IMG/VR virus record: IMGVR_UViG_2703718801_000005
Location: 1-17,842 of that record
Length of the DNA stretch: 17,842 nucleotides
Strand: one strand, 5' to 3'
DNA from: a virus
Lineage: Duplodnaviria > Heunggongvirae > Uroviricota > Caudoviricetes
This document shows positions 3,001 to 9,000 of the stretch, one piece after another. Made by a program: the position numbers. Numbering within the stretch: position 1 is the stretch's first letter; each line of letters opens with the position of its first letter.

Positions 3001-6000
3001 CCAGCCATCAACGCCCACCACCGGAACGATGCCGTTCTGCTTATCAGGGAAGGCGTAAATTTCTTTCGTCCATGGATTAAGGCCGTACTGGTTGGCAACG
3101 ATCAGCAATGCGATGAACTGCGCATCGCTGGCATCACCTTTAAATGCAGTCTGGCGAAGAGTGGTGATCAGTTCCTGTGGGTCGACAGAATCCATGCCGA
3201 CACGTTCAGCCAGCTTCCCTGCCAGCGTTGCGAGAGCTGTACTCATCTGGTTTATACCTCTGAATCAATATAAATCTGGTGGCGGGCAATGGTTTCAACC
3301 ATGTACCGGATGTGTTCTGCCATGCGTTCCTGAAAATCGACATCGTCATCAAATGCACGGGCAATGGCTTTTTTGCTGGCTCCATGACGTTGCAGATTAT
3401 CGATGCACAGCGATTCAAACAGGTGCTGGGGCAGACCTTTTTCCAGGTCGTCCGCCAGTTCAGTCTCATTTTCTTCACGGGTAATTTGCCGGTAGTGTCG
3501 TGCCCATGACTGCTCTTCAATGCGATCGGGGATAAGCCAGGCATTCATGATTTATCACCTCCAAAATTTTCAAGCCTGTTGGCAATCATGATTGCGATAT
3601 CAGGGATTGCTGGCGCTGTTGCGACGCATGCAGGGTTTGCGCACAAACCATAGACGGCTGCAAGCACGAGTTGCCTTTTCCAGTCGAAATCTGCTTGCTC
3701 TGAATCATCATTATTGTCAGAAGCATCACTATCTGGATCGATGTGAACAACCGAATCGTGTTCCTGAGTTGTATCAACAGCATTTTTCTGAATGTATTCA
3801 TTCTTCATTTGTGCCTGGTCATCTCCAGCAGCGGTCTCATTTTCTCCAAAAGTTTCAGCGTAAGTTTCATCTCCCATTACTGGACCACAGTCAGGGCAAT
3901 GCCCGCCACTGTTCTGACCGCATGCGGTGCAAACCTTTTCCACTTCCTGTTGCATTACTGGCCCAGGCTGTTGCTCTTCTGGTCCGTTTTGTTGCGTATC
4001 CGGGCTGTTTTGTTCCACTTTGGATTGATTCTGGTCCTCAGTGTCGCGAGTCTGGATCCCCTTCACCCACTTCGGGTCGGTTGGGTCGCTGATGCCTTCA
4101 ACGAACTCCCCACGAGAGGCAGCCAGCAATTTGTCTGCATCGACAGGATTTTTGGGCAAAATGTTTTTCCTGGCTTCATAGAGTTCTGCTCTCAGTTCCT
4201 GGTATTTCGTTTCTACAGATGAGACATTTTCCAGTGATTGCGTGTCCGCATTATGTTTAACTGGAATTTCTTCCACTGATTCAGGCGCTGCCTGTTCATT
4301 AGACATTGCGTCCGATGTTTGCTGCTTTTCTTCATCGTCATGTATCTCTTCTGCTGTTCCGCGCTGCGGCATCGGGGCTGATGAGCGACCGCAGGCAATT
4401 TCCACGATTTCCGGATCCGGGTTAGAGTGATCGGTTTCGGTCAACACTTTGTTGAGATATTCAGTCACGCGCGCCGGGATAGCCTCAATGCCAATTGGTG
4501 CTTCTTTCACTGAAGCCACCACAATGGCGCGGGAATAATCCAGCCCACCGGGCATGGCGATGAATTTGTCACGGAAAACAGAAAAGGGCGGTTTATTCTC
4601 TGCAACGATTTCTTCAACGCGTTTTGCATGTGCAGGGTGCAGGTTATAAATATCCACATCCATTGAACGGGCCAGAACGCCAGTGGCAATGTCTCGCGCC
4701 AGTGATGCCTGATTGTGGGTAAAGCCTTCGCCACGATCGGTAAGATTTCCGCCGCCAGCGTTAGCACCGGAAGGCGTACGAGTGATGCCTGTAACATAAT
4801 TTCCTTTCTGCCATTCTTTTGCCAGCAATCCCTGATCCACATAGTCTGTTTTCATCCAGGTGGAGATGAACTTGTCGAATTCGGCCGGGCTGATATGACG
4901 GGGTGTTGCGTGAGAGAATGCCTTTCCAACGGATTGTGCCAGTCTTCCCAGATGATAATTCGTCAGCTTATCCAGCTCTGGATGTGAACGCACAGCAGTA
5001 AGCAGGCTCTGAAGGTAACTGTCTTCTGTGTCCATCTCCATACGGATCACGTTATTTCGTTGTTCGGGTGTGGCGTGATGCCGGTATTTTCCATCTTCAT
5101 CTTTGCTGAAGAAGAAGAGGTGAAGGAAGCGATGAGTAAGGCTCAGAGTGGCGACGGGAATTTCACACTCAGAACAGTCATCGTCGCTGTCCGGGGATTC
5201 GCTTTTCTCCACATCATCCGGAATAGTTCCGTCCAGGTTATCGTAGTCATCGCCAGCTGTTGTGGCATCTTCACCGTTGATGTTGTCATCGAAGGGGATT
5301 GCCATCATGGTGATGCCATCTTCCCCGCCTTTTTCATAGCGGTTGCAGAATTCAGTATCAAACACGCCTTCCGGTGGAAGGTCATTCACGACGGGGAAAT
5401 TTACGCGAACGGGTTTTTTGAAATCATCCTCGTCGTAGCCTGCATCGTCCATGGCTGCAATGCAGCGGGAAACTGCGACAGAAAGTTTTCTGGTATCAGC
5501 CCAGAAAAAACCGCCTTTGATGCCAAGGCGTTTTCTGACTTTATCGTTTTTTGCTTCGCAGTGCAGTGCAAAAGTTTGTTTATCAGCGCTCATTGTATTT
5601 AAACCTCTGGCTGGATTAGAATTAGCGGCCCTTTGTCTGATTTCTCCGAATACAGTGACGCAGGGGGGAGTCCGGTAGCCTGCGCTGCCGGATTTTTTAT
5701 TTCAGTGTAAGGTTGCCTGGTTTGTTGTTTTGTGAGTTGTTTTTTTCTTTTCATGCTGGCAGTCAGAGCAGTTGCATTCGCCATTTTCTCTGAGAAGTTG
5801 AAGTGCCAGGGTCAGTTCCTGAATTCTTTGTGGATCAATATGACTGTCGACAATTTCAGATGCAGCATGAATATATGGGCTGGTGGTTTCGCAATATAAA
5901 CCGAAGGAAACAAAGCGACTGTCTTTATATTCGTTATTTCCAACTTCTGTAAGCACTGAAAAAGAAAATACAAAGTCGATTTTGTGTTTTTTGCATATTT

Positions 6001-9000
6001 TACTGATGCGTTCTGCAATTTCTTTGAGTTCATTTATTGCATCAGGACTGGTTTCGGAAAAAATTTCATTTTGCGCAAGTTCTTTCATTTTGATTTTCCC
6101 GTGATTGATAATTAATGTGGTTTTTATTTCGGTTTGTCTGTTACAGATATGGAAGGTGTATTTTATTACTCGTCACAACTACTCTGCTTTTACAGGTAAG
6201 CCATCGCGCCCGATGAAAACTTTAATCATGCAGTCGGTAATGCATGTTTTTGTAGTCAGGCTATGAATATAGAGTTTTCTCTTTTCAATATTGTTTGCTG
6301 AAGCGATATATGTGCGGCCTTCATGAAGAACATAATCGCCAGGTGTCACGCACTGACGTGGTATTTCATCAGTTCCGAAGTGATGAGCAATCATAATTAT
6401 CTCCATTTTCACAAATGAACTTTGTTGATGCGGTGCCTGGTGCCTCCAGGTGACGTTAACCAGTTAACAATTAACGCCGGAGCAGGGGATGATGATTTTC
6501 CGTGACATCCTGTCGGTTTAACTGTTCCGCGTGTGCATAGCCGCATTCACCGCATCATAAAATTCACTTTTAAAAAGGGCGGACATCAGCAATCGGCAAA
6601 CCGATGTCCGCCAAAGAGGATATTGATACATGGATGTTGCAGCGGGGTTGTCACTCAGGCGTCTGGGGCGATTTCCATTATTTACGATGCACTTGAAACA
6701 TTCCTTGATCGAAAACTTTCATCTGTCACCGACGGAACATCGAGTAAGCAATAACATTTAACACACACTCTAAATAACAAGGGGTGGGCTTGATACCGTT
6801 CTTTTCAAGCTCACTCGTAATCACCTCCAGAAGTCGTGCGCCCATGAGAATTGTCTTGTGGGATGAAGCTATTACGCCGTCGCTGATATTGCTGTTTATT
6901 TCTATTGCTTCATTTTCACCATTCGCGCTAACTTCGGATATGTTATTTTCACTCTCCTGTTTCAGCGCTTTTTCTGCCATCCGGATGCGTTCCTGCGTTG
7001 CGGAGTTTGGGCTAAGTCGATAAACCTGTCTGGCATCTTCCAGAAGCAGGGCGATAATGTGCTTCAGTTCTGTTTCGTTCATAGTTAACTCCGGTAGTTG
7101 CAATTTATTAATATCAGGCGGTCAGCTCTTTAAGCTTCTGAACTGCTTTATTCATTTCATCCATACAGTCGATGAATTCGTCCAGTTTAAGCTGCATTTT
7201 TCCGGCGGCCTGAAGAATTTCAAGTTTTAAGGGCGCAAGTTTTTTGTTGAATACATCATCTTCCTGGCGTTTTTTCTCCGCAATTTCGGCGGCTTTCAGC
7301 AATTCTTCCGCCTGCTTTCTGAGTATTTCTGGTGAAGGTGAAACTGCTTTTAGGTTATTCATTTCAGGTTCCTGTTGTTGCAGAATTAATTTGTTGCATT
7401 CTCTGCGTGAGCGTTTCATCGCAGATTCGCACTTCTTGCAATAAATGGCTCTCCCGTCACGTTTGCTGGCATCTGAATAAAAATCATCGACTGATTTTGT
7501 CTGCCCGCATCTGGTACATAATTTTGATTGAAGGTCCTTAATGATTGTGACGTTTCCTTCCCGCTTGGGATATCCATATTTTTTGTGGCGGAAAAAGGTT
7601 ACTCCGTTACCAGAACTTTCTTTTCTGACCTTAAATACAATGATGCTTTCCCGTTTATCGATAAAATCTATGAGCTGGTTTCTCTCCTTTCCTGACAGTT
7701 CGGCAAATGTCTTAACTTTTTTAGTAACTTCCGTAAGGCGAACGCCGTCAGGCATTTTTTCAACGAAGTTTTTAATCTCTGCAAGCGGACGCCATAATTT
7801 TTGCGGCAAAACTGAAGGCGTGGTCATCAATCACCTCGCTGTTATTGTTCCGGATTTGCGATAGCCAGCTGCATAAAGTGCAGTGTTTGGAAGACAAGTA
7901 GAGCCTTCATATTTTCTGGTTAATGTCGTTATCGTGACTACTTCAGCTCGCATTGCGGCTTTGCGTTTACACTGTAAGTACACCCGTGAAGGTGTGGGGC
8001 GGTGCAGTTTATCAGCGCTTGATGCCTCCAGACTCTGAAGCTCAGCCCGGTGTGCTCTGCGGCGGGAAGCTGCGGTGCCTTTAAATTCTGTTTTTCTGGA
8101 CATAGATTTCTCCCGAATAAACTTTGGCGATGCAATCTCGAAGCCTCCCCTGAGATGATTGCTTCGGCATTGCACCCGACAGCTTATGCGGTTGGGCGAT
8201 CTGGCTTTGCAGCCACGTAGTCGAGTGTTCGACGTTGTTTAAAGAGCTTTCCAATTGGGACCGCGTTGTTATCGGTGACCTGTTGGTAAAATGATTATTA
8301 ACCGTTGGTTAGTGTTAGTCAATAACTCAAAGTTAAAATTATTGTAGAGGAATTCTATGTTTTTGATTTTTAGTTAATTATTATTGCTTGTTCGGTGAGC
8401 GACGGTTATCAAGTATGAAGGGGTATAGAAGCTAGGATAGATGAGTTTTGGCTAGCTGGGTTAATAAAAAACCCGGCTCTGAGGCCGGGGGAGAGGGCTA
8501 AAGCAGAACTGAATACCAGAAAACTTTTCCGATAATCTCCACGCTTTGAGTATCTGCTTCTTCGTCAGGGTACTCTTCACTGTTATAACTGCGTATGATT
8601 AGTTTTCCACCGGGGCGTCTGTACAATAGCTTTATACGCTTCAGTTTTTCATCACCGACACCAGGCTGTGCGATGGCGTAGAGTTTGCCGTCAACAATAC
8701 GTTTGTTGTTTGTGTCTACTGCGATTGTTGTTCCATCTGGTATCACGGGTTCCATGCTATCACCAGTAGCCGGAAAACAAAGCACACCAGAACCATCACT
8801 GTTAGCTCCGACACGGCGCAAGGTTGCTTTTGAGAAGCGTAATTTAAAACCATTATGATCTTCGCAATGAACTCTTCCGTCACCGCATGCAAACTCAATG
8901 TCTTTCAGATATGGCACCTCAACTTCATCATCTCGTAGTGGTGTATTTCTGTCCCAAGTTTCAAGGGAACCCCATTCTGATTCGTTTGGAATAGAAGGTC

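Follow-up and report, generated by a model that had tools for sequence, protein, structure and literature searches.

A conserved antisense-facing terminator beside a RecE-family gene as the probable 3' end of a cis-antisense small RNA in a lambdoid prophage

The early-left (pL) operon of lambdoid prophages is examined here in a stretch of 17,842 nucleotides (nt), called the window throughout, that makes up positions 1 to 17,842 of the IMG/VR virus record IMGVR_UViG_2703718801_000005. The window covers the early region of a lambdoid prophage of the Rac/Stx type, and the segment of interest is the kil-to-recE part of its pL operon, in which all protein genes lie on the minus strand. Within this segment, between an orphan open reading frame (ORF) of 128 amino acids (aa), ORF128, and a gene for a 682-aa RecE-family protein, stands an intrinsic terminator that faces the opposite way, at 5671-5702 on the plus strand. 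This site is probably the 3' end of a small RNA (sRNA) gene that lies antisense to the leader of the RecE-family gene in cis and might affect downstream expression. The terminator can act on plus-strand transcripts only, and its position and orientation are conserved among related loci. An abundant plus-strand RNA 3' end is on record for the homologous site alone, in the Rac prophage of Escherichia coli K-12.

The plus-strand hairpin has a stem of 9 bp, including one G·U pair, with a core of -15.4 kcal/mol (z -4.6), and it is followed by a U6AU3 tail, the final base of which is shared with the stop codon of ORF128. In the minus-strand reading, this hairpin contains an A·C mismatch, folds at -12.0 kcal/mol and is followed by CUCCCCCC in place of a U tract, so that it cannot terminate transcripts of the operon strand. 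A generic scan did not list the site, probably because an upstream G-run forms G·U pairs with the T tract and the stem thereby runs into the tail.

To place this hairpin among its relatives, 80 recE-family loci were taken from IMG/VR and another 18 from genomes of Escherichia, Shigella, Citrobacter, Kluyvera, Enterobacter and Salmonella, with each species represented by one genome. The 253-nt regions that precede the recE start, 58 of them distinct, were surveyed. An antisense-facing terminator-like site was found in 47 of the 58 regions and a sense-facing one in none, with a rate of 1.4% per strand in shuffled sequences. Position and orientation are kept in prophages of at least five enterobacterial genera, and about ten different stems fill this place. 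Many variants have a GCCTGC core in common, yet they pair it in different registers. The window stem (type A) is TCCGGTAGC/GCTGCCGGA and the Rac stem (type B) is ATAGCCTGCG/CGCAGGCTAT, with TAGCCTGCGC as the shared core, and the stems of Kluyvera and Enterobacter (CCCGC..GCGGG) are unrelated to the others. Covariation was assessed within the Rac-like group, given that types A and B differ in the register of the core, and compensatory changes of the kind AU<->UA and AU<->GC were seen there together with G·U intermediates. Among 17 variants, 11 G·U pairs fall on the plus strand (in 8 variants) against 1 on the minus strand, and several variants are 3-6 kcal/mol weaker when read on the minus strand. 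The compensatory changes and the strand preference of the G·U pairs point to selection on a plus-strand RNA hairpin with a U tract. As a separate observation, a conserved motif forming a small hairpin, CCCTGCCATTGCTGGCAT, is present in the recE or ydaE leaders of variants that have no antisense terminator (L058-L062, L040 and L050), and it also occurs between racC and ydaE in Rac-SA53 (L003, 2295-2320).

These patterns bear on the idea that the hairpin serves the minus-strand pL mRNA, through its stability or RNase III processing, or that it marks a recombination boundary in the DNA, the T tract being incidental. Some features of the locus suit this idea: the hairpin always lies within a few nt of the upstream gene's stop codon, the junction is mosaic, in that the promoter side moves together with recE and the stem side together with the cassette, and the core mentioned above is widely shared. 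The pairing does not follow it, however, as the G·U pairs of the plus reading become A·C on the minus strand, at a cost of up to 6 kcal/mol. The T tract likewise stands on the plus side wherever a site was found and never on the other side, and the plus-strand RNA end of K-12 maps exactly into it. A role confined to the minus strand or to the DNA is therefore very improbable.

Evidence for a transcript comes from two public maps of RNA 3' ends in K-12. Term-seq of strain MG1655 recorded a plus-strand 3' end at 1417486, classed as 'antisense racC' (Adams et al. 2021, PMC7815308, Supplementary file 1), with 185,664 reads in LB medium at an optical density (OD) of 0.4 and 146,140 reads in LB at OD 2.0 (PMC7815308). 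This end falls within the U tract of the hairpin that separates recE from racC in Rac, stopping 2 nt before the stop codon of racC; the gene name racC occurs three times in that file, which has three condition sheets. An independent terminus at 1417483-1417495, with a signal of 0.99 and rank 151, is listed in the TRS paper, where sokC appears in the same table with a signal of 0.986 and rank 225 (PMC10687069). The terminus is not discussed in the text consulted of either article, and RefSeq annotates no RNA at the Rac hairpin of K-12. Rfam searches, at the gathering score and at E <= 10, returned no family for this RNA on the antisense strand of the window, the K-12 Rac region or 13 related loci, and the literature searched, which left most subscription-journal papers outside it, holds no published name for the RNA.

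The start of such a transcript can be predicted from a sigma-70 promoter-like site (Table 1), the TTGTAT -35 element of which overlaps the start codon of the 682-aa gene. The pattern TTGNNN-N16-18-TANAAT has only two matches in 35.7 kb (both strands of the window), and one of them is this site, about 50 nt upstream of the terminator. In all variants of types A-F, the hexamer TA(A/G)AAT occupies nt 27-32 counted from the C of the recE CAT, with TTG 18 nt upstream, and similarity between these types ends right after the hexamer. In a Kluyvera sp. locus (L094) whose leader is otherwise unrelated, TGTTAGAAT stands at this offset. Given this promoter site, the RNA would start near 5627-5629 and would be about 70 nt long. 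Its predicted fold, a 5' stem-loop abutting the terminator stem-loop, recurs in every type with z values of -3.0 to -4.9 (-3.7 to -4.9 in Rac-type and other variants with the two-hairpin layout). The predicted RNA is complementary to the intercistronic RNA from the ORF128 stop codon to the ribosome-binding site of the 682-aa gene, and with the predicted promoter it would span about -34 to -107 from the ATG of that gene. No plus-strand ORF is conserved across the hairpin types. A 75-aa candidate on the plus strand (5451-5678), which ends in the hairpin, was rejected, being open only in the hairpin type of the window and closed in all others.

An earlier note, made from the window sequence alone, had described the hairpin as a terminator that can act on a plus-strand transcript only, and the 9-bp stem with its U6AU3 tail, set against a minus reading that has no U tract, agrees with it. 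The same note had suggested an antisense transcript over the 5' end of the 682-aa gene. By homology with the K-12 3' end, a plus-strand transcript at the window hairpin is indeed very likely; with the predicted promoter, however, it would cover the 5' untranslated region (UTR) and not the 5' end of the coding sequence.

A terminator and a 3' end could also arise where there is no sRNA gene at all. The hairpin could be a safeguard that stops pervasive or read-in antisense transcription, begun in or beyond the RecE-family gene, before it enters kil and the immunity region. The K-12 3' end would then mark where such transcription stops, or a decay product that the hairpin protects. The measured evidence consists of the terminator and the 3' end alone, which this explanation accommodates, and the predicted promoter has a weak -35 element and was missed by the generic scan. 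The amount of RNA speaks otherwise: about 186,000 reads and rank 151 are in the range of stable RNAs such as SokC in the same tables, whereas long untranslated antisense RNAs in E. coli are usually terminated by Rho and scarce (PMC7815308). The -10 hexamer kept at a fixed distance, the 5' stem-loop that abuts the terminator in all types and the rarity of the promoter-like pattern in the window speak against a safeguard as well. We consider this explanation unlikely. It is further opposed by the strand bias of the G·U pairs, by the conservation of the -10 and by the high, sharp 3'-end signal, all of which speak against a function on the minus strand too.

If the sRNA gene is real, its product might act in trans, as a moron-like RNA that is expressed in lysogens and targets host or phage mRNAs, or as a sponge for another RNA. 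The RNA is abundant in K-12 even though its cis target, the Rac pL operon, is repressed there, and this operon region is rich in trans-acting sRNAs (KilS/DicF-like in the window; DicF or IsrK in related loci). A trans-acting RNA would nevertheless be expected to keep a seed, and the single-stranded body is not conserved between hairpin types; the RNA is also absent from the Hfq RIL-seq sRNA tables searched. Action in trans is thus quite improbable.

Still less probable, and close to negligible, is that the antisense RNA serves as antitoxin in a type I pair and restrains a toxic neighbour, in the manner of RalA and RalR of Rac. The geometry resembles that of ralA, in that a plus-strand RNA stops where a minus-strand gene has its stop codon, and kil is toxic when expressed, according to the RefSeq note on Rac Kil. 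A suitable partner is nonetheless hard to find, as the RNA overlaps neither kil nor a small hydrophobic ORF, and ORF128 itself is not hydrophobic. The gene that holds the place of ORF128 in Rac encodes RacC, which blocks a retron toxin and is not itself a toxin.

Under the preferred reading, that of a cis-antisense sRNA, the inferred promoter TTGTAT-N18-TAGAAT would sit inside the translation-initiation region of the RecE-family gene, and the RNA would be constitutive or active in lysogens, made while pL is repressed. In any pL transcript, the intercistronic RNA between ORF128 and recE would be a perfect pairing partner for it. This pairing would yield a double-stranded substrate for RNase III, and cleavage would separate and destabilise the recE-gam-bet-exo message. 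Alternatively, head-on transcription would interfere with read-through from pL. Either route would lower the expression of recE-gam-bet-exo, or uncouple it, relative to kil and ORF128.

Several points weigh against the cis-antisense sRNA and its proposed role. The regulatory effect on recE is pure inference, by analogy with the action of lambda OOP RNA on cII. The promoter is a consensus match only, with a -35 element that agrees at 3/6 positions and a spacer of 18 nt, and it too went unlisted in the generic scan; moreover, the conserved -10 region could instead stem from the recE leader or from a mosaic recombination boundary. The transcript evidence belongs to the type B hairpin of Rac and reaches the type A hairpin of the window by homology. 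In 11 of the 58 upstream regions there is no terminator, for example where kil stands directly before recE. Finally, the lack of conservation in the RNA body between types fits a cis-acting RNA but gives no positive sign of function.

Table 1. Coordinates of the features discussed, in window positions
Feature	Position	Strand	Description
RecE-family gene, 682 aa	3545..5593	-	ORF; PRK09709, Pfam Exonuc_VIII; 'RecE family exodeoxyribonuclease' in RefSeq
Predicted sigma-70 promoter of the antisense RNA	5593..5622	+	-35 TTGTAT 5593-5598, spacer 18 nt, -10 TAGAAT 5617-5622
Predicted cis-antisense sRNA, ~70 nt	5627..5700	+	5' stem-loop and terminator stem-loop; -31.7 kcal/mol, z -3.0
Intrinsic terminator	5671..5702	+	Stem 5671-5679/5684-5692, loop CUGC, U6AU3 tail 5693-5702
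ORF128, orphan 128-aa protein	5702..6088	-	PHROG 2016; slot directly upstream of recE
AT-rich spacer	6089..6178	-	31% GC; right part, 6128-6178, is the remnant of the 5' end of a ydaE-like gene
kil, orthologue of the FtsZ inhibitor KilR, 71 aa	6179..6394	-	92% identity to K-12 KilR; NF008465; PHROG 294
kil leader (5' UTR), conserved	6395..6571	-	Close alignment to the K-12 kilR leader
Intrinsic terminator ('tL-like' in the earlier note)	6572..6612	-	13-bp stem, -23.9 kcal/mol, z -3.8, then CUUUUU

The setting of the hairpin is best seen in an identical copy of the locus in E. coli OkiPb01683. The minus-strand order there is integrase, lambda-type exo, bet, gam, the 682-aa RecE-family gene, a 128-aa hypothetical protein, kil, two hypothetical proteins, N and a cI-type repressor, after which come cro, cII and the replication genes on the plus strand. 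The integrase end of this copy (L001, 1-620) adjoins ynfH and genes for a DMSO/selenate reductase subunit, which gives the likely integration site. Of 5,426 complete E. coli genomes, 76 contain a 1.3-kb stretch around the hairpin with at least 80% coverage, and the stretch also occurs in the Shigella/Stx phages POCJ13 and 75/02 Stx. The 682-aa protein, encoded directly upstream of gam-bet-exo, covers positions 1-593 of the 877 in the NCBIfam model PRK09709, with a score below the model cutoff, and in BLASTP it aligns to residues 43-546 of K-12 RecE with 54% identity. The match is confined to the N-terminal and central parts of RecE, and the protein thus has no C-terminal exonuclease domain.

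The earlier note had taken 5672-6394 for an AT-rich accessory insert of two small genes held between two terminators. Its base composition is as supposed: a windowed calculation showed that GC is not uniform, with 38.6% for 5672-6394 against 48.1% for the whole window and 49.2% for the 682-aa gene. By part, GC is 37.5% in ORF128, 31.1% in the spacer 6089-6178 and 41.7% in kil. Only 0.7% of 723-nt windows are as low, and the minimum of the whole window starts at 5692. The counterparts in K-12 Rac are equally low in GC (racC 39%, ydaE 37%, kilR 42%), so low GC is a general property of the module.

The picture of a two-gene insert, in contrast, did not hold. Similarity to K-12 Rac resumes at 6159 and runs to 6590 with 83-87% nucleotide identity. 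This span takes in kil with its leader, the last part of the spacer and the right-hand terminator; the gene, its leader and the terminator form a conserved backbone of the Rac type. The variable unit is accordingly ORF128 with the hairpin, in place of racC and ydaE; ORF128 is a variable cassette and an alternative to racC, which is the part of the accessory-insert claim that stands, and kil and its leader fall outside it. The terminators that flank 5672-6394 belong to other transcription units. No sign of a moron-type unit was found in the generic scan, which gave no minus-strand terminator after ORF128 and no promoter-like site in 6089-6178. Farther along, window 6128-6617 aligns to 2389-2884 of phiSTEC1589 (L002), where an intact 57-aa ydaE-like gene lies at 2269-2442, next after ORF128, and is annotated 'Rtr1/RPAP2 family'. 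In the window, the remnant of this gene (about 50 nt, 6128-6178) has no start codon, which indicates a deletion between kil and ORF128.

In a set of 98 related loci, the slot upstream of recE holds ORF128 alone in 30, ORF128 with YdaE in 6 and RacC with YdaE in 26, besides other combinations, and ORF128 and RacC never occur together in any of them. ORF128 matches PHROG 2016, to which PHROG assigns no function, throughout its length. A database of 5.8 billion proteins contains 26 relatives, with length kept and indels in-frame. The full-length match and the length-preserving homologues mark it as a real gene. All relatives with a source name are from E. coli, with 65-100% identity among the matches listed, and a hidden Markov model search of 1.84 billion representatives returned only close E. 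coli relatives and no distant ones. ORF128 has no NCBIfam or PADLOC family, and in Pfam only a sub-threshold match to OB_NTP_bind. Its AlphaFold2 (AF2) model is mostly helical by prediction, with a pLDDT of 61, and Foldseek against BFVD gave no match with E < 0.9. The earlier note had proposed comparing this protein with RacC and YdaE, but no similarity emerged: BLASTP gave no alignment to RacC at E <= 100, and to the zinc-binding protein YdaE a match of 2 residues only (E 24). The cysteine cluster for which the protein had been singled out, CxCxxCxH, is conserved in part. The CxxC pair (C107 and C110) is invariant across homologues, while C105 is replaced by F or G in two homologues and H112 by R or D in several. 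A metal site formed by C32, H74, C107 and C110 is possible, although the AF2 model, at its pLDDT, is too poor to judge it.

The second small protein, which had been likened to KilR by its position and size, proved to be a KilR orthologue. In addition to its 92% identity with K-12 KilR, it scores 152.9 bits against the NCBIfam model NF008465 (cutoff 92), with residues 7-77 of a 77-aa reading matching model positions 1-71 of 73, and it matches PHROG 294, 'Kil protein for bacterial septation inhibition', with E 1e-37. RefSeq and phage annotations concur on this identity. The reading from ATG (6179-6394, 71 aa) is preferred over that from GTG (6179-6412, 77 aa) and is the one annotated in RefSeq. 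Within the pL operon, the gene comes after a KilS-type leader and before the recombination genes, and its product, judged by its orthologue, would block FtsZ ring assembly once the operon is derepressed. A second plus-strand terminator-like site lies inside kil at 6227-6256 (CATGCA-N8-TGCATG followed by TTTTTGT) and is kept in K-12 kilR; the K-12 Term-seq supplement has no entry naming kilR.

The minus-strand terminator on the right, which the earlier note had pointed out, is real (-23.9 kcal/mol, z -3.8), but it lies at 6572-6612, outside the 5672-6394 segment that it was thought to bound. It aligns with the 3' end of K-12 kilS (b4833, 1418405-1418502), and its 3' arm with the U tract, CTGATGTCCGCCCTTTTT, is identical to that of K-12 KilS. 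KilS is an sRNA in the K-12 kilR leader that has been verified by northern blot and found associated with Hfq in RIL-seq (PMC8175672). As judged from this alignment, the terminator is the end of an sRNA unit and not the edge of an insert. The Rfam model DicF gives 15.8 bits for the window copy and 39.1 bits for K-12 KilS, both below the gathering score of 48. The sequence upstream of the terminator (within 6572-6725, minus strand) is a likely sRNA body in the 3' UTR of the ORF at 6726-7103. This KilS-like body differs from that of K-12 and from that of phiSTEC1589, and the divergence suggests a variant seed. In the kil leader itself, the Rfam family STnc100 is matched below threshold, at 6380-6578 on the minus strand with 30 bits (E 2e-4) and in the K-12 kilR leader with 28 bits; STnc100 may be a kil-leader element.

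Elsewhere in the window, three Rfam families exceed their gathering scores on the plus strand, namely isrK (15034-15110), C4 antisense RNA (15136-15219) and sRNA-Xcc1 (16118-16207). In related loci, the isrK/C4 pair and DicF are found upstream of recE instead. A 238-aa ORF on the minus strand (7114-7830; PHROG 2539, a family with no assigned function) matches, over about aa 100-160, the Lar-like restriction-alleviation, endonuclease VII and HNH zinc-ribbon families.

Not all of this locus is new. The kil gene was already known, and ORF128 as an orphan accessory gene is ordinary. What stands out is the reverse-facing terminator, which points to a probable sRNA gene. Its RNA shows up in two public K-12 3'-end maps, yet neither RefSeq K-12 nor Rfam annotates it and none of the papers searched names it. 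If the RNA controls the RecE-family and Red-type genes, it would add a regulatory layer to the lambdoid pL operon. Such control, if true, would bear on the silence of native recE, a gene that is activated by the classical sbcA mutations, which lie upstream of it. It would bear as well on how phages balance 'trigger' and 'blocker' products of retrons: RacC is the blocker of the retron RcaT, and RecE is its trigger, which degrades the multicopy single-stranded DNA (Bobonis et al., bioRxiv 10.1101/2020.06.22.160242). With these two roles side by side, it may be speculated that an RNA at the junction of their genes could tune their ratio. A broader proposal, which we put forward as tentative and on balance doubtful, is that Rac and Stx prophages across the Enterobacteriaceae carry a conserved, abundant and unnamed antisense sRNA at the mosaic junction of slot and recE. 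This RNA would silence leaky recombination genes in lysogens and set the ratio of slot product to RecE after induction, and it would link an RNA switch to counter-defence and to the silence of recE in K-12. The slot, whether filled by racC or ORF128, might then be devoted to anti-defence, its product being the 'blocker' in Rac and RecE the 'trigger'.

Among known systems, the OOP RNA of phage lambda is 77 nt long, is made constitutively and, as an antisense RNA to cII, brings about cleavage by RNase III. The predicted RNA of the window resembles it as a short antisense RNA that runs from promoter to intrinsic terminator within a lambdoid early operon, is fully complementary to the transcript at a gene junction and is expected in the lysogen. 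OOP, however, belongs to the pR operon, where it overlaps the cII 3' end, whereas the predicted RNA covers an intercistronic leader in the pL operon; the two share no sequence similarity or Rfam match, and the RNase III step would apply here by analogy. RalA of Rac (b4714) is likewise a small plus-strand RNA in the same operon that ends at the stop codon of a minus-strand gene. It differs in being 179 nt long and annotated as the antitoxin of RalR; the window RNA is predicted to be shorter and has no evident toxin partner.

With respect to RacC, ORF128 stands exactly where racC does, as a small orphan gene that directly precedes one of the recE family, but it has no detectable sequence similarity to RacC, and the RecE relative next to it has no nuclease domain. 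An anti-defence role for ORF128 is a conjecture. Close to the window locus as well is the kilR-ydaE-racC-recE region of K-12 Rac (b1352-b1350). The two loci agree in gene order and strand, in kil and its leader, in the KilS-type terminator and in the RecE-family gene downstream, and both have, between the slot gene and recE, an antisense-facing hairpin with a T tract and a TA(A/G)AAT box at the same offset. They differ in the slot, where the window has the unrelated ORF128 and a ydaE remnant in place of racC and ydaE, in the register of the hairpin stem and in the body of the KilS-like RNA. They also differ in the recombination genes, as the RecE-family protein of the window, without a nuclease domain, is followed by gam-bet-exo, and that of Rac by recT.

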